A stretch of DNA of 64,000 nucleotides from a virus. Taxonomy: Duplodnaviria; Heunggongvirae; Uroviricota; Caudoviricetes. A program made the translations under genes and the position numbers. The notes under the pieces were generated by a model that had not been told where the DNA came from, ran no database searches, and worked only from the letters and a program-made list of their open reading frames with translations. Positions 17,131 to 47,368 of the stretch are shown here, one piece after another (position 1 is the stretch's first letter; each line of letters starts with the position of its first letter). The DNA lies in the IMG/VR virus record IMGVR_UViG_3300045988_163275, positions 1 through 64,000 of that record; one strand, written 5' to 3'.

Positions 17131-17964
17131 TTACGCACGGCGAACAATCATGCGGTTGTTGATGTAGCTAACCAGCAGTCTCCAGGTACTGCGAGCCACA
17201 TGTAAATTTGCCGCTTTGCCGGTGCGGTACATATTTGTCGTTTCACCAATGGATTCAGACAGGATGCCGTCCTCGCGAGCTGCCGCTACGTCATTGCCAT
17301 TAGCGATTTCGCAGGCTTCATTAACCACGGCCAGCATTAATGTCTGTTTGAAGTAGTCAGGGAATTCGTCGAATTTATCCTGCGTCATCTTCTCCCAATC
17401 AATCAGATCGTGACGATATGCCCCGTCAGCACCCCACGGTACGTCATATACGTTCAGCATGTTTTGTGGACGGTCGTACCGATCGAAATCGATACGAAGG
17501 ACTTTGCGGATTGAAAACGGCAGCGTTTTGACGCGTCTGGTGGCCTCAATGAGACGTTTGCGCATCAGCCCGTCACCATCAGCCAACAGAGTGTCGCCGT
17601 TCAGCATGTCGATGGCTTGCATCTGGGCGTCTGCGACCGTTGCGAATGACTGGCCTGGGATAGACAGCTCGAAGCTATTTAGCAGAACGTACATCTTGCG
17701 CTCTTCATGCGTCAGACCGGATGCCACCGCTTTGACGAGGACGTAACGCAGATCGCGCTCTTTGTCGGCAAGCAGGTTGTGTTCGGCCGACACGACAACC
17801 GGAATGGACATCTGCCCCTCAGTAATATCGAGAGGTTCGTTATCAACGATGATCGAACCCGCGCCATCTCTGACGGTATACGTTGCCGACTCAATATCCA
17901 GAACGTTAAATGCAAACGACAGGGAAACGGCTTCCCCGCTACGGTACGTGTCGATCTGTGCCAT
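17131..17964 (-). CDS. virion structural protein, function unknown
   Basis: 277 aa ORF in the late operon between capsid and tail genes; no recognisable motif. Confidence 0.4.
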   Translation of the reverse strand: MAQIDTYRSGEAVSLSFAFNVLDIESATYTVRDGAGSIIVDNEPLDITEGQMSIPVVVSAEHNLLADKERDLRYVLVKAVASGLTHEERKMYVLLNSFELSIPGQSFATVADAQMQAIDMLNGDTLLADGDGLMRKRLIEATRRVKTLPFSIRKVLRIDFDRYDRPQNMLNVYDVPWGADGAYRHDLIDWEKMTQDKFDEFPDYFKQTLMLAVVNEACEIANGNDVAAAREDGILSESIGETTNMYRTGKAANLHVARSTWRLLVSYINNRMIVRRA

Positions 17965-22357: not shown

Positions 22358-22379
22358 TTAGGTAAGTACTTACCTATCT
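22358..22379. repeat. TAAGTA-type palindrome (near-perfect)
   Basis: cttaggtaagtacttacctatc; between TerL stop and portal start. Confidence 0.55.
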
Positions 22380-23630
22380 AGAACCACCAAGAATAACACG
22401 ATTTTTCACCGGATACCTACGATGAACCGGATAACCCAACGCATCCGCACTGTGTTCGATGCCGCCAGTCTTATCCATATCGCGTGAGCCTGGCTTGTAG
22501 ATCACCTTCTCCAGCGAGTCGATGAGGTGTTTGCACTTCGGATCGATGTACAACCGGGTTTCGCCCGAGGCACTCATCAACATGCGGTTCACTGCGTTAA
22601 CACGGTCTGCGATCGGCGGGTGCTTCTTCGGATAATCGACTCGAAGGAAACCTTTCTCTTTGAAGATGTCGACGTCAGATTCGCCGCGTGCGTGCTGGCG
22701 ATACGCACCTGCCGGGTCAGGAAAGATAGTGACCTGAGATTTCCAGCGCCAGTATCGACGCTCCAGCTCGTCACACACTTCAGCCGTGTTGGAAGAGAAC
22801 AGCACAACCTCGTCCACGGCCCACAACTCGCCATTTGGCTGCGGCTGCAGGATGACCGATGACATAGGGTCGATGTTGAAGTCCTGACCAACCCAGATCG
22901 GAAGTTTCGGATTGAACTGGAGTGGCTTCACATGCACATTGCGGTCGAACGGGTAGTAAACGCGTCCGGACATGTTTTCGAAGCTGGCCAGGTATTCCTG
23001 TGCGAACGATTTAGGGTCCATATCGTTCTTCGCTGCTTCGATTTCCGCGCTCGGTACGAACGGAGAATCGGCCGTAACGAACTGCCAGCTCTTCCACTGC
23101 CCCTTGCGTTGCAAATCTTTGTTCTGACCGATAGTCCACAGCTTGTGGAACTCGGAGAAGCCTTTTGGCGTACCGATGATCAGCGCACCGCCACGGGTGG
23201 AGGACAGTGTCGGACGCAGTACCTTGTACCAGGTGTCAGGCTTCATATCCTGAAATTCATCGAGCACCACAAAGTGCAGTGCCACACCACGAAGCGTATC
23301 GGGCTTATCCGCACCTTTCAGCGCGATTTCAGAGCCGTTCTTCAGCACGATGGTCATCGTGGTGTCGTTTTTCTTACGAACCCATTTGCGCGGCAGAACT
23401 TCCTGCAGGTCATCCCACAAGATCTGGCGAGCCATCTGGTAAGTCGGTGCGACGTACCAGACACGTTGCTTCTTCTCTTTGGCTGCCGCGCGGATGATGG
23501 TGGAGATCGACAACCGGGATTTACCCCAGCGTCGACCCGCACACACCACTTTGAAACGATGTGGCGACTGGAAGACTTGCATCTGCCCAGAATGCAGCTG
23601 TACGAGACTCAGAGACGACGGGATGGCCAT
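22374..23630 (-). CDS. terminase large subunit
   Basis: Walker A (VVCAGRRWGKS), Walker B (HFVVLDEF), C-terminal nuclease-like region (IWVGQDFNIDP...); follows the small subunit gene. Confidence 0.85.
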   Translation of the reverse strand: MAIPSSLSLVQLHSGQMQVFQSPHRFKVVCAGRRWGKSRLSISTIIRAAAKEKKQRVWYVAPTYQMARQILWDDLQEVLPRKWVRKKNDTTMTIVLKNGSEIALKGADKPDTLRGVALHFVVLDEFQDMKPDTWYKVLRPTLSSTRGGALIIGTPKGFSEFHKLWTIGQNKDLQRKGQWKSWQFVTADSPFVPSAEIEAAKNDMDPKSFAQEYLASFENMSGRVYYPFDRNVHVKPLQFNPKLPIWVGQDFNIDPMSSVILQPQPNGELWAVDEVVLFSSNTAEVCDELERRYWRWKSQVTIFPDPAGAYRQHARGESDVDIFKEKGFLRVDYPKKHPPIADRVNAVNRMLMSASGETRLYIDPKCKHLIDSLEKVIYKPGSRDMDKTGGIEHSADALGYPVHRRYPVKNRVILGGSR

Positions 23631-23632
23631 AG

Positions 23633-24274
23633 TCAGACGCTCCCATCACTTTCATCACCAGACGCTTCAGAATCGCCCTCAGCTTCGCTCAGTGCTTCCT
23701 CTTCGAGTGACTCAAGCAGATCGTCATCAATCAGATCCGGCTCATCATCTTCCTTACGCAGCTGCGCCACCTGGGAAGGCGTAAGTTCGCCAAATACCAG
23801 GTTCGGGATTTCGTCGTCCTCGTTCTCCACGCGATCCATACCGAGCGCTTTCGACGATATTTCGAAGCACTTAGCGAGTGTGCCGCTGGCACGCTGGAGA
23901 CTCTTCAGGTCATCTTCGATGGCTGCCAGTGGCCTGCCGTCCTTCTTGGCTGTGGCCACCTCATGCATCACCATACGACCGAGTGCGAACGCCCAATCGT
24001 CGTAACGAGTCCGGCGCTCTTCGATTTTCTCTGCACGCGCCTTCGCACGCAGCTCTGCGTCGGATTTGAGCGACTCGCGCACCATCTTCCCAACGGAGTC
24101 CGCGCCTTTCTCTAATCCACGCTTTTTGAAATGTCTGGAGAGCGTTTCACGACGAATGCCGTACTCTTCCTCCAGCCTGGAGAGTGTGTATTCGCCGGAA
24201 GTCCACTTCGCTTCGGCTTCTGCCCACTCAGCTGGTGTCAGGCGAGTTTTGCTCTCGTCTTTTTCTACAGTCAT
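23633..24274 (-). CDS. terminase small subunit (putative)
   Basis: 213 aa with N-terminal HTH-like region and acidic C-terminal tail; start/stop coupled to TerL; preceded by two operator palindromes and a hairpin. Confidence 0.6.
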   Translation of the reverse strand: MTVEKDESKTRLTPAEWAEAEAKWTSGEYTLSRLEEEYGIRRETLSRHFKKRGLEKGADSVGKMVRESLKSDAELRAKARAEKIEERRTRYDDWAFALGRMVMHEVATAKKDGRPLAAIEDDLKSLQRASGTLAKCFEISSKALGMDRVENEDDEIPNLVFGELTPSQVAQLRKEDDEPDLIDDDLLESLEEEALSEAEGDSEASGDESDGSV

Positions 24275-24311
24275 AGATCCCTCTAAAACACTCAGAGCGC
24301 ATCCTTGCGCT

Positions 24312-24356
24312 CCTAAACAACTTGTTTAATTCAGTGCCTAACCAATTTGTTTTCTG
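24312..24356 (-). promoter_or_regulatory. two tandem AAACAAnTTGTTT palindromes upstream of terS
   Basis: TAAACAACTTGTTTAA (24314-24329) and AACCAATTTGTTTTC (24340-24354), followed by hairpin GAGCGCAAGGATGCGCTC and the terS RBS. Confidence 0.55.
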
Positions 24357-24387
24357 GGTGTTTAAAACCGGGCTGGGGAGTATTCAG

Positions 24388-24466
24388 AACCTGCTTCCGT
24401 ATATATTTAATAAGTCACTTAGTATTTATATATACGGAAGCAGGCTCTCAAACTGGCTCCCAGACC
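24388..24466. repeat. 80-bp element: 17-bp inverted repeat around a TAAGTA-type palindrome (copy A)
   Basis: CCTGCTTCCGTATATAT, 21-nt loop (taataagtcacttagtattt), ATATATACGGAAGCAGG, then CTCTCAAACTGGCTCCCAGAC; between operon stop and terS promoter. Confidence 0.7.
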
Positions 24467-24469
24467 GAC

Positions 24470-24736
24470 TTACATCACCAGTAATTTGGCTCTGGCACGA
24501 CCTAACGTGGTCAGTCCCAGCGTGCGACGGTGGTAGCCGGAATCACCGCGCTGGCGGCACATTCCTTTCTCCACCAGCCCCTTTTTCACCAGTGCGCGGA
24601 TAGAGAACTGCATACTCTGTTTGGTCGTTTTGTACGGCAGCACTTCAAGCAGCTCGTCCAGATCGAGCAGATGCCCACGCTCATGGCCTAAATTGATGGT
24701 TTTGATGATGTCTTTTTGTTTGTCGGTCAACGTCAT
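24470..24736 (-). CDS. small winged-helix DNA-binding protein (putative regulator)
   Basis: 88 aa, HTH-like core (TTKQSMQFSIRALVKKGLVEKG); last gene of the ParB/ABC/GNAT operon, just upstream of the 17-bp IR hairpin element. Confidence 0.4.
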   Translation of the reverse strand: MTLTDKQKDIIKTINLGHERGHLLDLDELLEVLPYKTTKQSMQFSIRALVKKGLVEKGMCRQRGDSGYHRRTLGLTTLGRARAKLLVM

Positions 24737-24745
24737 GGCAAATCC

Positions 24746-25645
24746 TTATGCCGGTAATGCAATTTCAAGAGGTTTATTCAAAGGCTGTTTGTCGAATGCC
24801 AGCAGTGGCAGCGTGTCCGGCAGCTGACGACCAAAGTCCGGGTTTCGGTACACGCCATACAGCGGAGACGTGAAGCTCAGGTTGTGAATGTCCTTGAGCA
24901 GCTTCACGATGCTGGTCTCGTCCACCAGGCTGTCGGCAATGTCCTGAATCGTCGTGCCACGATTACGCCCGGCTTTGGCCAGGGAACTGTTCTTGTGGTA
25001 GTCAGCGACCAGATCACGCAGCGCACGACGACGGCGAGACTCACTCATGGCGAACAGCTCTTTGACGATCGCTTCGTTGTCGCCAGGGTCAGAACGGAAA
25101 TGACGCTGGAAGACGCGCAACGCACTCTCATAGCTCTTCGGACGCTCCGGACGGATGAACTGGAACCCTGCTTTCATGGCGAACGGGTTGTATTTGCTCA
25201 TCGACGACTGGATCTCGATGATTGGCCGGTCGTGCATCCTGCTAACCAGGTTAATCATTCGATAGGAGACGCCGACACCGCGGTACTGAGTGTCAACAAC
25301 GGAACGGCTGATCACGGCAAAGTTGTTGTTCACGTACCGGCCCCAATACTGGTTGGCCACGGTGGTATTGGTGGTTGGCTTCAGCTTAGGAAACATGCGA
25401 TGGCGAGGCGCCAGCAGCAGTTTCGGGTAAGCCATAACCACGACGCCCACCAGCCGGTCGTCCAGTTCGCAGCGATAATACGTTGGCGCGAACGGCTTAC
25501 CATCCGTCTTGTAGTGCAGCGACTTCAGCGCGTGCCAGTCTTCAACCGTGCCTTTGGTAACGGTCATACGCTCCAGAAAGTCCAGATGACGCGGGAACTC
25601 TTCCGGGCGGTAGCGTTTGATGATGATGCCTGTCATGTCGATCAC
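24746..25645 (-). CDS. GNAT-like acyltransferase domain protein with C-terminal extension
   Basis: GNAT-type motifs (VVDTQYRGVGVSYRMINLV ... NPFAMKAGFQFI) in the N-terminal half, plus about 130 aa of unknown C-terminal sequence. Confidence 0.4.
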   Translation of the reverse strand: MIDMTGIIIKRYRPEEFPRHLDFLERMTVTKGTVEDWHALKSLHYKTDGKPFAPTYYRCELDDRLVGVVVMAYPKLLLAPRHRMFPKLKPTTNTTVANQYWGRYVNNNFAVISRSVVDTQYRGVGVSYRMINLVSRMHDRPIIEIQSSMSKYNPFAMKAGFQFIRPERPKSYESALRVFQRHFRSDPGDNEAIVKELFAMSESRRRRALRDLVADYHKNSSLAKAGRNRGTTIQDIADSLVDETSIVKLLKDIHNLSFTSPLYGVYRNPDFGRQLPDTLPLLAFDKQPLNKPLEIALPA

Positions 25646-25896
25646 CTGCGCTCGATATTGGTATTGATGAAGTCCAGACGAAGCGATTCCATCGCCCCCA
25701 CCATGACGTATGGGCGCCCACCGTTATGCCAGCAATCCATAACATTGCCGTCGTTGTCGATCATCAGCAGAGCCAGGCTCTGACTTTTGCCTTCTCTTGC
25801 GTACTGGAGTGCTTCTTCCAGCAGGCGGATGACTTCAACGTTGTTGTTGTCAGTCTCTTTCGATGGCTTCAGCTCTACGATCTTCAAATCAGGCAT
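25642..25896 (-). CDS. hypothetical protein
   Basis: 84 aa ORF overlapping its neighbours by a few nt (operon context). Confidence 0.35.
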   Translation of the reverse strand: MPDLKIVELKPSKETDNNNVEVIRLLEEALQYAREGKSQSLALLMIDNDGNVMDCWHNGGRPYVMVGAMESLRLDFINTNIERR

Positions 25897-26527
25897 ATTC
25901 CACCTTCACGCGTTCTTTGTAGTGCTTGGTGATCTGCATATCCGGGCGCAGCGCGTTCTTCAGGTCTTCGTGGGTCGTCGCCACCATTACCGTCGCACCA
26001 ACCTTACGGGCGGCACGCTGGAGGTTCGACGCCACAACCTGGGCGGTTACACGGTCGAGAACAGCGCCAAATTCGTCGGCAGCCCAGACTTTCGCGCCGG
26101 ACTCGATCAGCTTGGCGATCTTGAGACGGTATTTCTGGCCGTCAGACATCTCGGATGGCTTACGCACAAAGAGATAGGCGTCATTCAATCCGGCCATAGA
26201 CAGCAGCCCCAGCGCTTCGCTGGTGGTTTTGCCCAGCTGGTCAATGACGTTAACCTCATTGTCGAAGGCAAAGTCATCGATGGAGGCTACAGAAAGCCCT
26301 TCATCCTTCATCTGGCGTTGCAGCTCGCGCAGCACAACGGATTTACCGGAACCGGATTGGCCGGTGATGTACACCACATCGCCCTGCTTCACTTCCAGCT
26401 CCAGATTGTCGTAAAGCGTCCACTCTTTTTCGTCCAGGCCAAGACCGAACGATTCGGCAATCTCCAGCGTGCGCGTGGTTTTGTTCACGCGGGTCTGAAA
26501 CGATACGTTGATGGTGTATTTGCTCAT
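25889..26527 (-). CDS. ABC-type ATPase (stand-alone nucleotide-binding domain)
   Basis: Walker A (GQSGSGKS), ABC signature-like (MSDGQKYRL), Walker B (VWAADEFGAVLD), H-loop (ATTHE). Confidence 0.65.
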   Translation of the reverse strand: MSKYTINVSFQTRVNKTTRTLEIAESFGLGLDEKEWTLYDNLELEVKQGDVVYITGQSGSGKSVVLRELQRQMKDEGLSVASIDDFAFDNEVNVIDQLGKTTSEALGLLSMAGLNDAYLFVRKPSEMSDGQKYRLKIAKLIESGAKVWAADEFGAVLDRVTAQVVASNLQRAARKVGATVMVATTHEDLKNALRPDMQITKHYKERVKVEYA

Positions 26528-27192
26528 GCGGCCAGCTCCCCAGAAGAAACTTTCTCCGCATACGCCACGAAAGCGTCTACCCCGCTCTCTCCCGTGATTT
26601 CTTCCATGTGGGCAAGCAAATCCCCAACCACAATGGCAGAGCCAGCAGGGAGCGTTTTAAAGCCCAATACGTCGATGACGCGGACTTCTTCAGAGGCCAC
26701 TTCGCGACTGATCTCGGTGTGCTCTTCCTTCTGGCGCTCCGTCTCTTCGCCCAGATCGAGCACCAGAGAGCCGGTTTCCATCTCTTCGGTCATGCTGCCG
26801 ACAAGCACGTTCAGCTCGCGCTCTTCAAAACCGAAGACCTCGACGTCGCCCAGCACCAGGGATTCCAGTTCCTGCTGCAATTTGATGGCGTCGTAGTCAA
26901 TACTGGCCAGGCGGTTGTCTTCCAGACGCTTAGCCTTCACTTCTTCTTCGCTCAGATCGTCGCGAACAATGACCGGCACACGCTCCAGACCAGCCAGAAG
27001 AGCCGCCTCGCGACGACCGTGGCCAGTAATGATGACGTCGTGCTTGTCGACAGTGATCGGCTGGTCAAAACCGCGCTTTTTGATGGCGGCCGCCAGATCG
27101 CGGATCTGCTGTTCGTCATGTTTTTTGGCGTTCATCTCATACGGGATGAGTTCTGCCGGGTTTCGATAGACGATTTCAAAGTTTTTGGTCAT
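26524..27192 (-). CDS. ParB-like nuclease domain protein
   Basis: ParB N-terminal domain motif (VIITGHGRREAALLAGLERVPVIV); acidic C-terminal half; start taken at MTKNFEIV, overlapping the upstream stop. Confidence 0.6.
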   Translation of the reverse strand: MTKNFEIVYRNPAELIPYEMNAKKHDEQQIRDLAAAIKKRGFDQPITVDKHDVIITGHGRREAALLAGLERVPVIVRDDLSEEEVKAKRLEDNRLASIDYDAIKLQQELESLVLGDVEVFGFEERELNVLVGSMTEEMETGSLVLDLGEETERQKEEHTEISREVASEEVRVIDVLGFKTLPAGSAIVVGDLLAHMEEITGESGVDAFVAYAEKVSSGELAA

Positions 27193-27890
27193 TACATACG
27201 CTCCTTGTAGTAGTCGACCAGCCACACCAGGGCTTCCCCGGCGTTCTCCATTTCGTTACCGGTATTGATTCCCTGCTCTTTGATGATGGTTTTGATGGTG
27301 TCGGCGACGCGATCTGACGCATCAAACGTCACCTTGAAGCGCATCGTCTGGTGTTCAGCGCCGACTCGCTCGGTTTTCTCGCGTTTGTCCTCATCGACCG
27401 GCTCGTCATCGCCACGGGAGAGCGCTTCCAGCGCTTCAAGATCGATAACGGACGCTTTGGCGAGTGTTGCCGCCATTTCGTCGTCATACGGGGCGATATC
27501 GGACAACCGGTAGTCGATTTCAGACTGGATTTCTTCGATTAAGCGCTGCAAAGCGACCTGATCGTCTTCGCCGTAGCGCTCGTTGTCGACGAGGGAAATC
27601 TGTTTGGCCACCAGATCGTTAATTTTGCCCACGGAGATGACGGGAACCGTTGAAATGCCCTGCTCCATCGCGGCACGCCAGCGGTGTTCACCACCGAGGA
27701 TCTCAAAAATGCCCCCGTCCAACTCCCGCGCCAGAATTGGCTTAAAAAAGCCCAATTTTTCGATAGAGCCTTTCAGTTTTTCGAAGTTTTGCGCCCCAAC
27801 GGAGTTGGTATTCCAGGGATTCGGACGCAGGTTCGCGACTTCCACCTGCAGAATCGTAATTTTCACACCCATAGTTCTGATACAATCCAT
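27192..27890 (-). CDS. ParB-like nuclease domain protein
   Basis: ParB N-terminal motif (FEILGGEHRWRAAMEQGISTVPVI); first gene of the operon, divergent from the helicase gene. Confidence 0.6.
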   Translation of the reverse strand: MDCIRTMGVKITILQVEVANLRPNPWNTNSVGAQNFEKLKGSIEKLGFFKPILARELDGGIFEILGGEHRWRAAMEQGISTVPVISVGKINDLVAKQISLVDNERYGEDDQVALQRLIEEIQSEIDYRLSDIAPYDDEMAATLAKASVIDLEALEALSRGDDEPVDEDKREKTERVGAEHQTMRFKVTFDASDRVADTIKTIIKEQGINTGNEMENAGEALVWLVDYYKERM

Positions 27891-27893
27891 TGT

Positions 27894-27910
27894 ATAAGTA
27901 CTTACTTACC
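27894..27910. repeat. TAAGTA-type palindrome
   Basis: tataagtacttacttacc; in the 64-bp divergent region between the ParB-like operon and the helicase gene. Confidence 0.5.
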
Positions 27911-27954
27911 ATAATAGCCAATTACCATACAAAAGGCACGAAGGAAAGAGGTTT

Positions 27955-29514
27955 ATGACAGTTCGGATTGTATCGAATGCAGTCAATGCGCTGATTTCTA
28001 GCGCTGATGACAACGTGAAGCGGCTCGTTCAGGAGATGTTGAGCTATGAAGTGGAGGCTGGGGACTGGAAAGGAACCAGCACGATGTTCAACTGGAGCAA
28101 AAACGCGTTCCCGGCTGGGTTTGCGAAGCCAGTTGCAGCCAACCTTCTGAAAGCTGGCATCAAATGCGTGCATGTGCGCAAGGAAAAAGCTCCCGCGCTG
28201 GGCAAGCCGAACCCGGTAGTTAACCCATTCCCGTATAACCCGGACTATGCGTATCAGGATCAGACAGTGGAAACACTGGTGCGCGAAGGGATGATGATTG
28301 CCCAGATTGCGACGGGTGGCGGTAAATCGAACGTAGCGTGTAAGGCTGCTGCTCGCATTGGTCGTATGACGCTGTTTTTAACCACGCGATCGGTTCTGAT
28401 GTTCCAGATGGCAGAGAACTTCCAGAAATCCATCGACTACCGCGCGGAGAATGGCGAGCCGTGGCTGAAAGGTCAGAGAGTTGGGGTGATTGGATCGGGT
28501 GAGTTCCAGGTCTCGCGCCATATCAACGTTGCCACGGTGCAGACCCTGGCCAGTTTTCTCGAAGAGCCACCGCGCGACGCATCACCGGAGAAAAAACAGT
28601 ACCACCTGAAGCGCCGGGAACTGGTTAAACGCTTCCTGTCCAGCGTTTCTCTGCTGATTCTGGAAGAGGCACACGAATCATCTGGTTCTAACTTCTACGA
28701 CATCGCCCGGTTGTGCATCAATGCCGACTACCGTCTGGCGCTGACAGCTACGCCGTTCATGAAGGACTCGACTGAAGCAAATATGCGTCTCATGGCCGTT
28801 GCGGGTCGCATCGAGATAAAAGTAACGGAGAAATATTTGATCGACAGAGGTATTTTAGCGAAACCATACTTTTTATATCATAAAATCGCGTACACTCCAG
28901 ATGAGGCGCGGATTAGAGCCGAACTTGCTTCAAAACACCTGAATTTTCGGGTTGGAATGAGCACGGCTTACCAGAAAGCCTATCAGTTAGGCATCGTCTA
29001 TAATCTGGGCCGCAACGAAGCTATTGTGCGTGAAGCGCTAATGTACAAGAGTCACGGTCTGAACTGTATGACATTGGTTCGTCTGAAGCGTCATGGTCAG
29101 ATCTTGATGGAAATGATGAAAGAGAGTGGCCTCAAGGTCGATTTCATCTACGGAGAATCAAACCAGACTACCCGACAAGCAAAACTTAATAGTCTGGCGG
29201 CAGGCAAGATAGATGTTCTCATTGGTTCAACCATTCTGGATGTTGGTGTCGACGTTCCAAGCGTAGGCGCGGTGATTCTGGGTGGTGGCGGGAAAGCAGA
29301 AGTTGAAATGAGACAGCGTGTCGGTCGTGGCTTACGAGCCAAGAAAAATCAGGCTAACGTGTGCTTTATTACCGACTTCATCGACGTGAGCAACAAATAC
29401 CTCATGTCGCATTCATATGAGCGGAAACACATTATCGACACGACGCCTGGGTTTGCCGAGGGGGTCTTGCCGGTTGGCAGCACATTCGATTTCACTGTTT
29501 TGGATAGAGAGTAA
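27955..29514 (+). CDS. SF2 DNA helicase (DEAH-like)
   Basis: Motif I (ATGGGKS), motif II (LEEAHE), motif III (TATP), motif VI (QRVGRGLR). Confidence 0.8.
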   Translation: MTVRIVSNAVNALISSADDNVKRLVQEMLSYEVEAGDWKGTSTMFNWSKNAFPAGFAKPVAANLLKAGIKCVHVRKEKAPALGKPNPVVNPFPYNPDYAYQDQTVETLVREGMMIAQIATGGGKSNVACKAAARIGRMTLFLTTRSVLMFQMAENFQKSIDYRAENGEPWLKGQRVGVIGSGEFQVSRHINVATVQTLASFLEEPPRDASPEKKQYHLKRRELVKRFLSSVSLLILEEAHESSGSNFYDIARLCINADYRLALTATPFMKDSTEANMRLMAVAGRIEIKVTEKYLIDRGILAKPYFLYHKIAYTPDEARIRAELASKHLNFRVGMSTAYQKAYQLGIVYNLGRNEAIVREALMYKSHGLNCMTLVRLKRHGQILMEMMKESGLKVDFIYGESNQTTRQAKLNSLAAGKIDVLIGSTILDVGVDVPSVGAVILGGGGKAEVEMRQRVGRGLRAKKNQANVCFITDFIDVSNKYLMSHSYERKHIIDTTPGFAEGVLPVGSTFDFTVLDRE

Positions 29515-32136: not shown

Positions 32137-32679
32137 TTATTGTCCGAAGTTAGCCAAAACAGACCAAAGGCAAGCGCCATAAAAGCGCCAATTTAACGCA
32201 TTTTTGCGAGTCGCAGTATCTGACCATTACCCACAATAAAAACACGTTATAGCACGTTTTACAGCGTTTTAGCGTGTTGCTTATTTTGTCGTGTCGTTGG
32301 CGTGATCCGCGCTATCCTTCGGGACGTGTCGGCAATATTGGCGCTATCCGTGGGCGCTCGCATATGATTGCCACGTTGGGCAACGTGTACGCGCTTACAG
32401 TGGTTTACCCACGGATTCACATAATCACATAGCGAAAGCTATCTGGATGGCCCAGGGGCTGAAACCCCACCAGCGCTACCCCAGCGCCGCTACGCAATTT
32501 CTGGCGCGATTCCGGGTTTCTCCCGCTCAGTTTTCTACATAAAGGCGACCCCCGCCGTTTCCCGAAAAAATCTTGGCCGTTTCCCGTCGGCTCATGAATG
32601 CGTTCCTCGCCGTTTCTGAAAATTTCCCTGCGGCAGCTGGTGGCTATAGAGAAAGGGCCGTTTCTGGCCCTCTTCTCAG

Positions 32680-34908: not shown

Positions 34909-34927
34909 CATAAGTAAGTACTTACAA
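34909..34927. repeat. TAAGTA-type palindrome
   Basis: cataagtaagtacttacaat; upstream of 34476..34871. Confidence 0.5.
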
Positions 34928-36242: not shown

Positions 36243-37382
36243 TTTATGTCGTGAAAGCCAGGCTGGGCAGTGAATATCCGGGAACGACACGGGAACCAGT
36301 ATTTACGATATTCTGCTCTACGCGCGCCGCAGGGCTGGTGGGCAGAATTTTCTTCTCCCCGAAAACCTACTGAAATCGCTTGAGACCCGAGGATGGTCTG
36401 GCAGACTGGAGTTCAGCAGCTGCACGAGAGGGAACGACACTCCCCCGCGATTTTCAGGCGAGTGAAGAGTAAGGCGCACTCCCGAAGATTTCCCGCACCG
36501 CTCCCGCAGTCGTCTCTCACTCTGTACCGGGATGTACCCGTTTCCCGACCGGCAGCCAGCCTTTTCCCGGTTCGTATAGCGAGATTCCCACCGTTTCCCT
36601 GAAAAACCTCCAGCCTTTTCCCTGCGGCGACGTTCCCGTTCCTGAAAAGGGACATGGCCTTTTCCCTGGATGGCCCGAAGGCTGACCGAAGGGGTGGATA
36701 GGGACGTTACGGGGGATGAAAGCTATGGCTTGAATTTATACGAAGAAAGTGGCGATACCCCTCCTTCCCTTCCCACTTATACCTCCCACGAATTTTCTCT
36801 CTTATGTGGGCATAAATCTTCTCTCTGATAACGCTCAATACGGCGACTATTCCTGTGGGTGAAATGGGTGGTTTGTTCTTTCTACCGGCATATGTGGTTT
36901 CGTTCTTCTTGAGGTGGTTCTTCTCTGTGTTTTCGTCAGGGTTGTTCTCGTTGTTTTGGTGATTGTTCTTCTCTGTGTATGGAGTAATGGCAGGTGGGCG
37001 ATTCCTTTCGTTATTGTATTTGAGTTGTTTGTCTTGAGAGCGTGAAAGGCTTTTGTGGTTATTTGTGTATTGAGTAATGGCGTTTCCCCGCGAATGTTCT
37101 GTTTCGTGTCTTTGGGGATTGAGGGAGTCCTTGCGGTAACAGGCTTCGTTAGAGTTTCAGTGGTTCTGGTGTTTATTCGCTGTTTGGGGAATGGCGTGTA
37201 GTGGGTATCGCATGTATGAATGTTTCGAGTTGCCTGTGAAAGTTAGGTTGGTTGTCCGGTAGCCTGGGAAGAAGAGGTGGGTCTTTTCAGTAGCCTGCCA
37301 TAAAGAGGTTGGTTGTTTTTGGGAATGTGGGTAATGGCGTCTCTGGGTTTCCTGTGGGTGTGGTTAGCTTGTTTTCTTGTGT

Positions 37383-41706: not shown

Positions 41707-41728
41707 ATTAGGTAAGTATTTACCTCTC
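41707..41728. repeat. TAAGTA-type palindrome
   Basis: attaggtaagtatttacctctc; between the methyltransferase stop and 41664 start. Confidence 0.5.
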
Positions 41729-43412
41729 ATTTAACGCGTTTAAAAACGTATACGCTGACAGTAATCCCGGTGTCTTCAAACATGTTAGTAAACGACTTCC
41801 CTTTGGCATAAACGTAATTATCCAGCGTCATCCAGTTTAGAATTGGCGCGTCGCCCGGCAGCACTGCTACCAGACGCCCACCGACTTTCAGATGTCCCAG
41901 CGCGGCCAACGTGTGCTCTCTGTGACGGCCAAGAGAGTAGGGCGGGTTCATGACGATTTTGTCGAACTGATAACCTGCGTTGTCCTCAGACCACTTCATG
42001 AAGTCGCAGCAGACCGTATTTGTGTACCCCTTGCCAAGCAGGATATCAGCGAAGAGAGGTGCGACTTCTATGCAGGTAACGTCTTCCGGATTGGCGTCGA
42101 TGCAGGCCAGCAGATCTCCGCGCCCGGCTTCAGGCTCCAGCAGCTTCTCACCTGGCTTCAGCTCGATGGCTCTGGCAACGTACTCCGCTATCAAACGCGG
42201 GGTAGGGTAGAACTGGTGTGATTTTGTATCCGGTATTAAGCCGGTGGCCACAATCGTATTGAGCGTATGGCCGATCTCATACGGGAACTGCCAGTGCTTG
42301 TTCTCCTGCACGCCGCCAATAAAGCTCAGTGTACGCTCCAGCTCTTCCACCTGTGACTTCTGAAGACCGGAATCAGAGAAGTACCATACGCGTTTGTCAT
42401 TGCCAGATCGCCCGTCGCGAAGCGCAGTACGCACCGGCTCGGAGATCGTCTTCTGGATTAACCCGAACTGTTTTGGTGCCCGTGTTTTGGGCGCAGTACG
42501 ACATGGAGCCGGGATTGCAGCGGGCATACTGTAAGCCAGCACCTCATTCAGCTTCCAGGCTACGTCAGGATGTATTTCAAAGTGAACGTTGCCGTTCTTA
42601 AACATCTTCACACGCATCAGGTTTCCGTCGACATTCATCCAGTCGCCGGTCTGGCAGTCATTTGCTCGATACGCAGCTGACAGCATCTCGGCCGTGCGGT
42701 TGATGGTGATAAATTCTTTGTGTGCAAAGAAATGCAACATGACGCGCAGGTCGTCTATGTAATCCTCTTTCCGGTAGTTAACGCTGACGCTGTCCCGCCA
42801 GAAATCGGAAATGCAGTCGGCGATGATCAGACGCTCGCTGAAGCCGTTCGTCTTATTGGTCTTGTGAGCAGGACTCAACGCCTTAAACAAGCCATACACG
42901 CGCTCAGAGAGATATTTGTGCCTGTCATTCAGCAAATTAAGCATCGTTGGTATGACCGTTTCTGCTTTGAACTCAGGTACACCAACGAACTCTTTAACCT
43001 TCATTTGATAGCCAGTTCTGTCAGTCTTGATCGTTTCCTGCTTGCCCTCGATAAACTGTTCACGCCACTCGTCGCGGCGGGATGCTGGCATGATCAGCAG
43101 AACGTTGGTCATATCCGTGACCTTCTTCCAGTACTCGGCCCAGATATTTTGTTTCACCCATTCCAGGTCGACTTTGTCCAGCCAGGTTCTGTTAAAGCGT
43201 GTGCGCTCGTCGTCCGGCCGGTGGTTAAGTCGCAGTAGACGGTTAATCATGTTGTGGCGTTCGTCGCCATAAACGAAGTCGTGAACCTTATTCATGAACG
43301 CAATCTCTTTCTCGCATTCGGCCACAATTTCGTGGATAACATTCATTTCCTGCCGGTAGTCAATACCGGTGTCTGGAGTGATAGAGTCAATGATGGAAAG
43401 GGCTGTATTCAT
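41727..43412 (-). CDS. DNA methyltransferase (N6-adenine/N4-cytosine type) with large N-terminal domain
   Basis: C-terminal methyltransferase motifs: motif I (LLEPEAGRGDLL) and motif IV (VMNPPYS); about 390-aa N-terminal region of unknown function; true ATG at MNTALSIIDS; promoter plus palindrome module upstream. Confidence 0.7.
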   Translation of the reverse strand: MNTALSIIDSITPDTGIDYRQEMNVIHEIVAECEKEIAFMNKVHDFVYGDERHNMINRLLRLNHRPDDERTRFNRTWLDKVDLEWVKQNIWAEYWKKVTDMTNVLLIMPASRRDEWREQFIEGKQETIKTDRTGYQMKVKEFVGVPEFKAETVIPTMLNLLNDRHKYLSERVYGLFKALSPAHKTNKTNGFSERLIIADCISDFWRDSVSVNYRKEDYIDDLRVMLHFFAHKEFITINRTAEMLSAAYRANDCQTGDWMNVDGNLMRVKMFKNGNVHFEIHPDVAWKLNEVLAYSMPAAIPAPCRTAPKTRAPKQFGLIQKTISEPVRTALRDGRSGNDKRVWYFSDSGLQKSQVEELERTLSFIGGVQENKHWQFPYEIGHTLNTIVATGLIPDTKSHQFYPTPRLIAEYVARAIELKPGEKLLEPEAGRGDLLACIDANPEDVTCIEVAPLFADILLGKGYTNTVCCDFMKWSEDNAGYQFDKIVMNPPYSLGRHREHTLAALGHLKVGGRLVAVLPGDAPILNWMTLDNYVYAKGKSFTNMFEDTGITVSVYVFKRVK

Positions 43413-43421
43413 GATTGCACC

Positions 43422-43482
43422 ATTAAACAAATTGTTTTCTTATTGGTGTTATTTTCTCAAAGCTAAAAAGGCGTAAAAGCAG
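43422..43482 (-). promoter_or_regulatory. promoter plus palindrome module
   Basis: Minus strand: GCTTTTACGCCTTTTT...GAAAATAACACCAATAAGAAAACAATTTGTTTAATGG, upstream of the methyltransferase gene. Confidence 0.55.
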
Positions 43483-47350: not shown

Positions 47351-47368
47351 TGGTAAGTACTTACCTAT
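47351..47368. repeat. TAAGTA-type palindrome
   Basis: tggtaagtacttacctat; overlaps the stop codon of 47368..47598. Confidence 0.5.

Follow-up and report, generated by a model that had tools for sequence, protein, structure and literature searches.

A conserved ParB-ABC-GNAT gene module upstream of the terminase genes of an SSU5-like phage-plasmid as a candidate system for acyl modification of phage DNA

In an SSU5-like phage-plasmid, the six genes directly upstream of terS make up a late-gene module that is conserved among SSU5-type phages. We propose, with a probability of roughly 0.5, that this locus encodes an ATP-driven, ParB-assisted system for the acyl modification of phage DNA. The window, i.e., the whole stretch of 64,000 nucleotides that was analyzed, is 98% identical to Salmonella phage SSU5. 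This kind of system has been predicted by others from genomes, and the module in the window would be a further member: Iyer, Zhang, Burroughs and Aravind (NAR 2013, as cited in PMC7824862) predicted that an ABC-coupled GNAT modifies a DNA nucleobase by acylation. The first-pass annotation had offered three functions, namely a DNA modification or processing system, an anti-defense module and a novel segregation system; the evidence favored DNA modification, while segregation was unsupported.

Layout and conservation of the module

All six minus-strand genes were found exactly where they had been placed, and their content, i.e., two ParB-like proteins, an ABC ATPase, a GNAT-like protein and two small proteins, had been read correctly. 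In operon order, they encode ParB-A (27192..27890; 232 aa), ParB-B (26524..27225; 233 aa with a GTG start), a stand-alone ABC-type nucleotide-binding domain (25889..26527; 212 aa), an 84-aa protein (25642..25896), a GNAT-fold acyltransferase-like protein (24746..25645; 299 aa, as compared to 296 aa in the SSU5 annotation) and an 88-aa basic protein (24470..24736). The SSU5 annotation starts ParB-B at the ATG at 27192, which is probably the true start and yields a protein of 222 aa. With this start, the genes overlap by 1 nt, 4 nt, 8 nt and 4 nt in operon order, and the final junction, between the GNAT gene and the 88-aa gene, is a 9-nt gap. As judged from the sequence, these junctions are compatible with translational coupling. 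A divergent intergenic region of 64 bp (27891..27954) separates ParB-A from the gene of an SF2 (UvsW-like) helicase.

The gene order was compared with that of related loci. In the 32 loci reaching both flanks, the helicase was followed by the two ParB genes, the ABC gene, an insertion slot that may be filled, the GNAT gene, in most cases the 88-aa gene, in many a palindrome, then terS, terL and the portal gene. Two further related loci were short contigs with partial order (ABC-GNAT part only). The four genes for ParB-A, ParB-B, the ABC ATPase and the GNAT protein were co-inherited in every related locus covering the region: ParB-A was present in 32 of 32 loci extending far enough upstream, the other two being cut short, and ParB-B was present in the same 32. 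The six ORFs thus do not make up a uniform unit, as first described: only these four are core, the 88-aa gene is a frequent, not universal, companion and the 84-aa gene occupies a variable slot.

Sequence identity among the related loci went down to 36–40%, across alpha-, beta- and gamma-proteobacteria, and the module also occurred in integrated prophages: L004, located on a 3.3-Mb contig, and L007 of Hyphomonas both have chromosomal genes at their flanks. This spread, with integrated prophages included, argues against a plasmid partition cassette. The proteobacterial relatives all come from a single phage lineage; therefore, their terS/terL adjacency is inherited and is not independent evidence. 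The operon is encoded on the same strand as terS-terL-portal and directly upstream of it. A separate TerS candidate (PHROG 867), whose N-terminus contains an HTH-like segment, was identified.

Between the operon and terS, starting 19 nt past the stop codon of the 88-aa gene and located some 110 nt ahead of terS, lies a palindrome with an AT-rich center (24383..24451). No other inverted repeat in the 64-kb window is as strong, and the RNA fold calculated for it has -44.1 kcal/mol (z = -8.5). The 17-bp inverted-repeat hairpin reported previously is real and located at the operon end, but it is larger: the arms (24383-24406 and 24428-24451) comprise 24 nt with 92% complementarity and a 21-nt spacer. 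Many related loci, although not all, have, in the same place, a long inverted repeat that differs in sequence and surrounds an AT-rich core, and the GenBank records of SSU5 and Cyrano start and finish within the palindrome center. The palindrome marks the operon end, with a terminator, a protein site and a packaging-related site as candidate roles. The 64-bp divergent region contains a palindromic word, TAAGTACTTA, which precedes the start codon of ParB-A by 5 nt. Sequences of the form TAAGT(N0-3)ACTTA occurred five times (0.09 expected); the remaining copies lie in the palindrome center, between terL and the portal gene, and in front of two further minus-strand genes.

The ABC-GNAT pair and the ParB-like proteins

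The reading of the 212-aa protein as a stand-alone ABC-type ATPase was confirmed by Pfam (ABC_tran, E 4.9e-13) and by conserved motifs, and 183 solved ABC chains matched it. Walker A (GQSGSGKS), signature (MSDGQKYR), Walker B (VWAADEF) and H-loop (TTHED) were intact and were kept across 28 diverse ABC homologues. The 299-aa protein contains, as anticipated, a GNAT core (about residues 27-168), which belongs to an ABC-linked GNAT family and is followed by a helical C-terminal domain. The GNAT fold and the motif-A loop were conserved among relatives, the R-G-x-G loop was retained, and the protein is the predicted catalytic subunit. The best match of its structure model among viral predicted structures was, marginally, a Mom protein, and TacT was one of many equal structural matches. 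Toxin–antitoxin pairs of the TacT/AtaT type are two-gene mobile cassettes of a GNAT toxin of about 170 aa and an adjacent small antitoxin. Such a pair was ruled out, as the window protein has 299 aa, is tied to an ABC ATPase and is fixed in a late-gene block.

A profile of the GNAT protein retrieved about 1000 relatives; among the distant ones, most were 450–500 aa long and possessed an N-terminal ABC domain. More than 2178 proteins from Firmicutes, Bathyarchaeia and Thermoproteota make up this fused ABC-GNAT family, and single-chain relatives were located in phages, archaeal viruses and defense-island-like loci. Across the family, the GNAT protein was always paired or fused with an ABC ATPase. 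By sequence comparison, the ABC ATPase of the window is the partner of the GNAT protein, and the two correspond to the halves of a single-chain COG2401-type protein. The set had been taken to be of an unrecognized kind; this did not hold, as the ABC and GNAT pair corresponds to COG2401, "ABC-type ATPase with predicted acetyltransferase domain", of the MK0520 type, and several phage records already give the SSU5-type GNAT gene this name. While the same two protein families are involved, the window differs from the COG2401 fusions in that two genes, separated by an insertion slot, encode the two halves, and in that a pair of stand-alone ParB paralogues and one small basic protein are added. The C-terminal domain of the window GNAT protein is conserved within its phage lineage, and the function of the COG2401 family is itself a prediction.

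The ParB N-domain is a recurrent third partner, which in some organisms is fused to give ParB-ABC-GNAT. In the triple fusion P0317, a ParB_N domain (11-119) precedes an ABC segment (185-382; 46% identical to the window ABC protein, E 1e-59) and a GNAT domain (403-558; 2e-16), in the order of the window genes, and the AlphaFold2 model of P0317 was confident over the ABC-GNAT part. ParB was absent in four of the six fused contexts examined and is therefore accessory.

The ABC-GNAT family has DNA-directed partners or contexts. Fused ABC-GNAT genes were located directly after terL in a Bathyarchaeota provirus, without ParB, and, in prophages of Desulfofarcimen and Pelotomaculum, ahead of terL and portal. 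In a 98-kb phage, the fused gene adjoins DNA polymerase III alpha and DnaB; elsewhere, the neighbors were an N6/N4 methyltransferase and a type I restriction-modification system. In some of these loci, i.e., those with replication genes, methyltransferase or restriction-modification genes, no terminase was detected within 9 kb. In defense-island-like loci, the neighbors of ParB-ABC-GNAT triple fusions included a methyltransferase as well as a type I restriction-modification system. Further members were fused to a family B DNA polymerase, and one form contained an intein.

The two ParB N-terminal-domain proteins were borne out by Pfam ParB_N matches in ParB-A (E 1.4e-13) and ParB-B (E 1e-8), and this ParB/Srx (NTP-binding) domain was the only one that Pfam found in either. 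ParB-A, with the motif GGEHRWRAA, belongs to PHROG 723 (E 6.5e-86), and ParB-B, with GHGRREAA, to PHROG 930 (E 4e-115); they share 31% identity over 104 residues. The best solved relatives of ParB-A were the N-domains of Spo0J, ParB and Noc. Among 28 homologues, G66, G67, H69 and R70 of ParB-A and its D-N-x-R-Y-G-x-D-D motif were invariant or nearly so, and the GHGR motif of ParB-B was invariant. Both proteins are acidic (pI 4.6 and 4.55, with predicted net charges of -16 and -23, for ParB-A and ParB-B, respectively), while the GNAT protein (pI 9.8, +14) and the 88-aa protein (pI 10.1, +8) are basic. The segment aligned to the Spo0J HTH was acidic in both (pI about 4.05; the ParB-A middle segment has a pI of 4.05) and did not contain the basic residues of Spo0J. 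A ParB-like protein with a nucleotide-binding N-domain and without an evident DNA-binding domain is, hence, encoded beside a predicted modifying enzyme.

The N-terminal approximately 170 residues of both proteins are homologous to the N-domains of chromosomal ParB, Spo0J and Noc, but, unlike ParABS, the operon has no ParA partner, convincing HTH or centromere repeats. The CCGTTTCCC repeats that had been named as candidate ParB sites do exist (5 copies versus 0.33 expected), but none was found within or adjoining the operon. ParB-B also matched the N-terminal residues 28-182 of phrog_498, a ParB-methyltransferase fusion family (E 7.7e-33). The N-terminal part of these fusions is homologous to both ParB-like proteins, as is PADLOC MTase_II, whereas the predicted modification enzyme of the window is separate and is not a methyltransferase.

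Proposed DNA modification and alternative readings

The locus is proposed to encode an ATP-dependent nucleic-acid acyltransferase machine of the phage, most likely for post-replicative acylation of DNA bases. The basic GNAT subunit would bind dsDNA and move an acyl group onto the exocyclic amine of a base. The retained R-G-x-G loop suggests acyl-CoA as the donor; aminoacyl-tRNA, as with Mu Mom, is another possibility. The ABC domains would dimerize on ATP and power DNA clamping or base exposure, by analogy to the ATPase domain of TmcA/NAT10. The two acidic ParB paralogues, lacking a convincing HTH, could by analogy act as a nucleotide-dependent activator or clamp enabling action on duplex DNA, and the 88-aa basic protein would be a probable DNA-binding specificity or regulatory factor. 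The mark would be made late, on DNA soon to be packaged, and would protect against restriction in the next host; late timing is suggested by the common strand, the position directly upstream of terS-terL-portal and the shared upstream word.

TmcA/NAT10 are ATP-dependent N4-acetylcytidine synthases of RNA, in which a P-loop ATPase is coupled to a GNAT domain. As predicted for the window pair, they acylate the aromatic exocyclic amine of a nucleic-acid base; however, their ATPase is of the helicase type and their substrate is RNA, while the window ATPase is an ABC domain. No homology of the window proteins to TmcA/NAT10, which are mentioned in PMC13219725, was detected beyond the GNAT fold, so the likeness is one of analogy only. 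Mom of phage Mu is a late-expressed GNAT-fold enzyme that glycylates the N6 of adenine in dsDNA using Gly-tRNA (PMC13219725). No sequence-level relationship of the window GNAT protein to Mom was found with Pfam and PHROG. Mom works alone, without ATPase or ParB, whereas the window GNAT is paired with an ABC ATPase and, unlike Mom, carries a CoA-type R-G-x-G loop and an extra C-terminal domain. Regarding the ParB-like proteins, a phage ParB-like protein without DNA-binding domain is needed for thymine dioxygenase activity on dsDNA (PMC13229309). Mutations of nucleotide-site residues did not abolish function there (PMC13229309) and, thus, the role of nucleotide binding is uncertain even in this system. 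The ParB-like ATPase DpdB is required for preQ0 insertion (as quoted in PMC12839542). In 5mYOX176/ParB176 (PMC13229309) and DpdA/DpdB, the gene of a ParB-like protein adjoins that of an enzyme modifying DNA after replication, which needs this protein for activity on duplex DNA. The arrangement in the window is similar, but the predicted enzyme is an ABC-GNAT pair, it is accompanied by two ParB paralogues instead of one, and neither a dioxygenase nor a TGT (tRNA-guanine-transglycosylase) domain was found in the operon by Pfam and NCBIfam.

In the searched literature, neither modified SSU5-type DNA nor DNA-base acyl transfer by any COG2401-type member was found to be reported. As the chemistry of the enzyme is itself predicted, its target could be RNA, protein or a small molecule. 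The ABC-GNAT pair might acylate a protein of the host or the phage, tRNA, aminoacyl-tRNA or a small molecule, e.g., a nucleotide signal, to serve host takeover or anti-defense, and the ParB-like proteins would then be nucleotide-binding regulators not directed at DNA. We regard this as unlikely, though still a serious alternative, because the fusions and neighbors point overwhelmingly to DNA (ParB N-domain, family B polymerase, terL, polymerase III, methyltransferase, restriction-modification), both the GNAT subunit and the 88-aa protein are highly basic, PADLOC gave no defense-type match and the other known ATPase-coupled GNATs, i.e., TmcA/NAT10, act on nucleic acid. HNH or ParB-like nucleases process the packaging site in some other phages, and the module could be a packaging accessory in which ParB-like proteins and ABC ATPase recognize, organize or process a site such as the palindrome for TerS/TerL. 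The constant position upstream of terS-terL-portal, the fused genes abutting terL in the archaeal provirus and just upstream of it in two Firmicute prophages, the palindrome in which the SSU5 and Cyrano records start, and ParB-domain genes adjoining terminase or portal genes in unrelated phages, e.g., DLP3, speak for such a role. It nevertheless seems improbable, as GNAT acyltransferases have no known packaging role, the proteobacterial synteny is a single inherited arrangement, fused relatives also occur by replication, methyltransferase or restriction-modification genes with no terminase detected within 9 kb, and a separate TerS candidate is present.

A restriction-like defense or superinfection exclusion on behalf of the host, aimed at incoming DNA, would fit the triple fusions in defense-island-like loci and the fact that phage-plasmids frequently carry defense genes. 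We give it very little weight: PADLOC matches were limited to generic ATPase and ParB-methyltransferase domains, the operon contains no nuclease or other effector, and the module belongs to the fixed core of the late region and is not a variable accessory. Even less plausible is a novel plasmid segregation system with two centromere-binding ParB-like proteins and an ABC ATPase in place of a Walker-type ParA. The element is indeed a low-copy phage-plasmid, the nucleotide-site motifs of both ParB N-domains are conserved, and database annotations name these proteins partition proteins. However, the module also resides in chromosomally integrated prophages, the part that aligns with the Spo0J HTH is highly acidic, the ABC protein makes up the N-terminal half of a fused acyltransferase, ParB-ABC-GNAT exists as a single polypeptide, and the ABC-GNAT core adjoins terL without ParB in the archaeal provirus. 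The view that this is not a canonical ParAB cassette was upheld: among the ORFs and Pfam matches of the operon, no Walker-type ParA was found, the sole ATPase being the ABC domain, and SSU5 has a separate ParA-like protein, SSU5_033, with small genes downstream, which is encoded outside the window.

The two small proteins

The 84-aa protein (PHROG 796) had no match in Pfam, NCBIfam or PADLOC, and its gene was found in the closest relatives only. The slot between the ABC and GNAT genes was empty in L012, L014, L019-L021, L029 and phage Cyrano, and held one to four unrelated small ORFs elsewhere. The 84-aa gene is an unrelated passenger outside the core. The 88-aa protein belongs to PHROG 900 (E 4.9e-49), and a homologue was detected in 28 of the 32 loci reaching its position. 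Its earlier description as a winged-helix protein received weak backing from LexA_DNA_bind (E 0.14) and a PADLOC CARF-associated C-terminal region (E 2.8e-4); on these matches, it probably binds DNA through a winged helix. Small but unrelated winged-helix genes of the HTH_45 type were observed near the fused ABC-GNAT genes in L040 and L042.

The SSU5-type module and its conservation

The region 23600-28000 shared 98.4% identity with Salmonella phage SSU5 in a sequence comparison, and 83-85% identity with a set of Klebsiella and Escherichia phage-plasmids. Based on the identity to SSU5, the window was assigned to the SSU5-type phage-plasmids, a group often found in Salmonella, Klebsiella and E. 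coli. The six genes correspond to SSU5_125 to SSU5_130, annotated in the SSU5 record as two 'ParB-like partition proteins', an 'ABC transporter', a hypothetical protein, an 'ABC transporter ATP-binding subunit' and a second hypothetical protein. In other records, the fifth gene is named 'ABC-type ATPase fused to a predicted acyltransferase domain' or 'MK0520 protein'. A copy 99% identical to the window's GNAT gene was present on a 108-kb contig of Yersinia pestis NCTC5923, and contigs in MAGs labelled Bacillota or 'Candidatus Fimivivens' carried copies with 99% and 90% identity (the loci behind these observations are L008, L011 and L009). The two MAG labels probably reflect mis-binning of an enterobacterial phage-plasmid. 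A 567-aa ORF on the minus strand (41727-43430) was taken as the counterpart of the SSU5 'DNA methyltransferase'; its only Pfam match was DUF4942, and since no ParB domain was detected by Pfam, a ParB-methyltransferase fusion was rejected for this ORF.

All six minus-strand ORFs of the first-pass annotation were found where it had placed them. Neighbouring genes overlap by 1 to 8 nt, and only the last gene is set apart, by a 9-nt gap. ParB_N was matched in both ParB-like proteins, as was ABC_tran in the 212-aa ATPase, which retains the Walker A, signature, Walker B and H-loop motifs. The GNAT assignment of the 299-aa protein received no support from Pfam (E 0.07); an AlphaFold2 model built from a 39-sequence alignment was confident (pLDDT 89). 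Support for the proposed winged helix in the 88-aa protein was weak, and BLAST revealed no link between this protein and the HTH_45 genes near fused homologues. ParB-A retains G-G-x-H-R and D-N-x-R-Y-G-x-D-D and ParB-B retains G-H-G-R, both sets corresponding to the nucleotide-binding boxes of ParB. Both ParB proteins are very acidic (pI 4.6), most so in the segment aligned to the Spo0J HTH (pI about 4.05), whereas basic values were obtained for the GNAT protein (pI 9.8, net charge +14) and for the 88-aa protein (pI 10.1). Judged from these calculated charges, the GNAT and 88-aa proteins are more likely to be the DNA-contacting parts than the ParB proteins.

A homologue search with the GNAT protein yielded 487 relatives, while a search with ParB-A matched near-identical Klebsiella sequences only. 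Scanning one genome per species gave 30 loci, four others were added, and ten neighbouring proteins were mapped onto the 30 + 4 loci. Gene order was identical in the 32 loci that span both flanks; the two remaining, short contigs cover the ABC-GNAT part only. A divergent SF2 (UvsW-like) helicase gene is followed by ParB-A, ParB-B, ABC, a variable slot, GNAT and usually the 88-aa gene, and then by an intergenic region, a terS candidate, terL and portal. The loci span alpha-, beta- and gamma-proteobacteria, with identities down to 36-40%. Contigs of about 100-118 kb, which are probably phage-plasmids, carry many of them; other loci are chromosomally integrated, e.g., L004 and L007, which have flagellar or pantoate-ligase genes on their flanks. 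Several lineages and phage Cyrano have nothing in the slot between ABC and GNAT, which elsewhere holds 1-4 unrelated small ORFs; the 84-aa gene is confined to the closest relatives. The conserved core of the proposed unit thus comprises four genes, commonly joined by a fifth. In SSU5, the module takes a split form, with two ParB paralogues, a small basic protein that is often present, and a hot spot at which genes are inserted.

Fused ABC-GNAT relatives and their surroundings

A GNAT profile search against 1.84 billion representative proteins returned about 1000 relatives. Outside the phage lineage, most are 450-500 aa long, with the ABC domain first and GNAT beginning near residue 200. A search with one fused protein enlarged the family to >2000 members, and fused members occur in Firmicutes, Bathyarchaeia, Thermoproteota and metagenomes, frequently under the label 'ABC-type ATPase with predicted acetyltransferase domain'. 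Phage-protein HMMs matched both halves in every fused ORF examined. In several fused members, ParB_N is present as an additional, N-terminal domain. In one such triple fusion, P0317, the segments follow the gene order of the window (ParB, ABC, GNAT), with identities to the window proteins of 28-31% for ParB, 46% for ABC (E 1e-59) and 26% for GNAT (E 2e-16), and its AlphaFold2 model was confident across the ABC-GNAT part. These fusions constitute Rosetta-stone evidence that the ParB N-domain, the ABC ATPase and the GNAT act as one machine. ParB was missing from four of six fused contexts; ABC-GNAT is the obligatory core, and ParB is a frequent accessory. Among further relatives (P0174, P0190, P0162 and P0155), proteins of 791 and 1260 aa join ABC-GNAT to family B DNA polymerase, one of 847 aa has its ABC domain split by an intein that carries a LAGLIDADG endonuclease, and one of 665 aa has a TFIIB repeat after ABC-GNAT.

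The surroundings of the ABC-GNAT family are nearly all DNA-directed. The fused gene lies just upstream of terL and portal in Desulfofarcimen acetoxidans and Pelotomaculum thermopropionicum prophages, and directly after terL in a Bathyarchaeota provirus. It stands beside DNA polymerase III alpha, DnaB and RecJ on a 98-kb phage contig. One triple fusion has an 841-aa N6/N4 DNA methyltransferase as its neighbour, and a type I restriction-modification system lies beside another. Behind the fused gene in the Desulfofarcimen and Pelotomaculum prophage loci (L038, 10542-12328; L041, 10522-12344) come genes for Amidoligase_2, a conserved small protein and a gamma-glutamyl cyclotransferase (GGACT), which may make or trim the transferred group. 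The methyltransferase and restriction-modification neighbours belong to the unrelated metagenomic loci L039 (8089-9041) and L040 (5497-6386), in both of which two small genes precede the ParB-ABC-GNAT triple fusion; one product has about 130 aa and a faint indication of an HTH, the other about 160-186 aa. Their conservation between the two loci (54% and 31% identity) suggests a putative three-gene operon in these organisms.

Predicted function and alternative explanations

The best-supported reading is that the module encodes a predicted ATP-dependent, ParB-assisted acyltransferase acting on DNA. Homology, fusions, co-inheritance, motif conservation, charge pattern and DNA-related contexts were shown. 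DNA, rather than RNA or protein, would be the substrate; the donor, the roles of ATP and ParB, the timing and an anti-restriction purpose are likewise predicted. The mark would most likely be put on phage DNA before packaging. In its most far-reaching form, given a probability of roughly 0.4, SSU5-type phage-plasmids and thousands of other phages and archaeal viruses may mark their DNA with an undescribed acyl (e.g., acetyl or aminoacyl) base modification by means of an ATP-powered ABC-GNAT enzyme that requires a ParB heterodimer on duplex DNA.

Comparable components are known from other DNA-modifying systems. A subclass of phage thymine dioxygenases requires a ParB-like activator, needed specifically on dsDNA, that retains the nucleotide-binding and C-terminal domains and has no obvious DNA-binding domain (PNAS 2026; PMC13229309). 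DpdB is summarised in PMC12839542 as a ParB-like ATPase supporting DpdA in preQ0 insertion into DNA. The GNAT Mom of phage Mu, which is expressed late, moves glycine from Gly-tRNA onto adenine in dsDNA (PMC13219725). The literature search found no experimental work on the ABC-GNAT family and nothing on DNA modification, genome ends or packaging type of SSU5-type phages. The module is one of a class of systems known so far from computational prediction.

Acylation of a target other than DNA by ABC-GNAT is the leading alternative but unlikely, given the DNA-directed surroundings. An accessory role in packaging, ranked next, is considered improbable; it rests mainly on the position of the module and is kept in play by the palindrome between operon and terS, within whose centre the GenBank records of SSU5 and Cyrano begin and end. 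Both ParB-like genes are routinely labelled partition proteins, and a parB gene has reportedly served as a screening marker for SSU5. As the first-pass annotation had held in denying a canonical ParAB cassette, the module is not the partition system: because it occurs in integrated prophages, because a separate ParA exists and because ParB is fused to ABC-GNAT, plasmid partition was rejected despite the annotation, and a segregation system is scarcely credible. A defence or exclusion system is highly improbable; a known defence system was rejected since PADLOC matched generic ATPase and ParB-methyltransferase domains only. A GNAT toxin-antitoxin pair was dismissed because of the protein's size, its coupling to an ATPase and its fixed position.

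If DNA acylation is correct, DNA modification would gain a new chemical class, and an ABC ATPase would for the first time have an enzymatic part in modifying a base. Three widely studied folds would be in unfamiliar use to place an acyl mark on DNA, with the ABC ATPase as the motor of a base-modifying enzyme and the ParB N-domain as its activator. The family is large, comprising >2000 fused members and the split phage forms in bacteria, archaea and their viruses. Since the SSU5 group is widespread, cultivable and genetically tractable in E. coli, Salmonella and Klebsiella, it offers a convenient test bed in which mass spectrometry and long-read sequencing can put the long-standing computational prediction of an acylated DNA base to a direct test.

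The intergenic region before terS

The inverted repeat reported before terS is real but had been described as too small: the palindrome (24383-24451) has 24-nt arms, is the best inverted repeat in the whole window and gave an RNA fold z of -8.5. A long inverted repeat with an AT-rich, often internally palindromic core lies between the module and terS in many relatives, though not all, including L002 (4754-4842), L003 (11175-11289), L004 (11181-11322) and L007 (11184-11320) as well as L017, L023, L027, L029, L032, L033 and L034. The arms measure 15-51 nt, with no sequence relationship from one lineage to the next. At often 35-90 nt, the spacers exceed the length suited to ordinary terminators. 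The inverted repeat might serve in packaging, bind a protein or act as an unusual terminator. Rfam gave sub-threshold chance matches only, and a structured RNA in the region was therefore rejected.

The centre of the window's palindrome bears the palindromic word TAAGTCACTTA. The decamer TAAGT(N0-1)ACTTA has five copies in the window (0.09 expected), and each sits in a short gap directly ahead of the start of a minus-strand gene: 5 nt before the ParB-A start (27895-27904), in the palindrome centre (24411-24421), in the terL-portal gap (22363-22372) and before two other genes (34915-34924, 47354-47363). The heptamer GTAAGTA was found in 20 copies (3.3 expected). In distant relatives, GTAAGTA/TAAGTACTTA was for the most part not retained as an exact word at the three corresponding intergenic sites; it preceded terS in 6 of 25 distant loci.

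The palindromic word AACAANTTGTT (≤1 mismatch) was present in 15 copies versus 3.1 expected in the window, two of them between palindrome and terS (24316-24326, 24341-24351) and 13 clustered between 33184 and 44861; it is probably an operator or promoter element of a phage regulator. Downstream of these two words, the minus strand carries the terminator-like GC hairpin GGAGCGCAAGGATGCGCTCT with a weak T run (24294-24313), whose end lies some 20 nt before the start codon of terS. This layout could subject the late operon to attenuation or antitermination. Together with the words shared by the ParB-A, terS and portal gaps, the features before terS suggest, by inference, that the six-gene operon and terS-terL would be separate but similarly regulated transcription units.

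The CCGTTTCCC repeat, present in five copies versus 0.33 expected in the window, includes two pairs about 22 and 53 nt apart (copies at 32555-32585, 36538-36599 and 17922-17930). It had been put forward as the candidate ParB site, a role rejected for this operon because every copy lies far from it; the repeats may instead be iterons or operator repeats of a replication/maintenance region.
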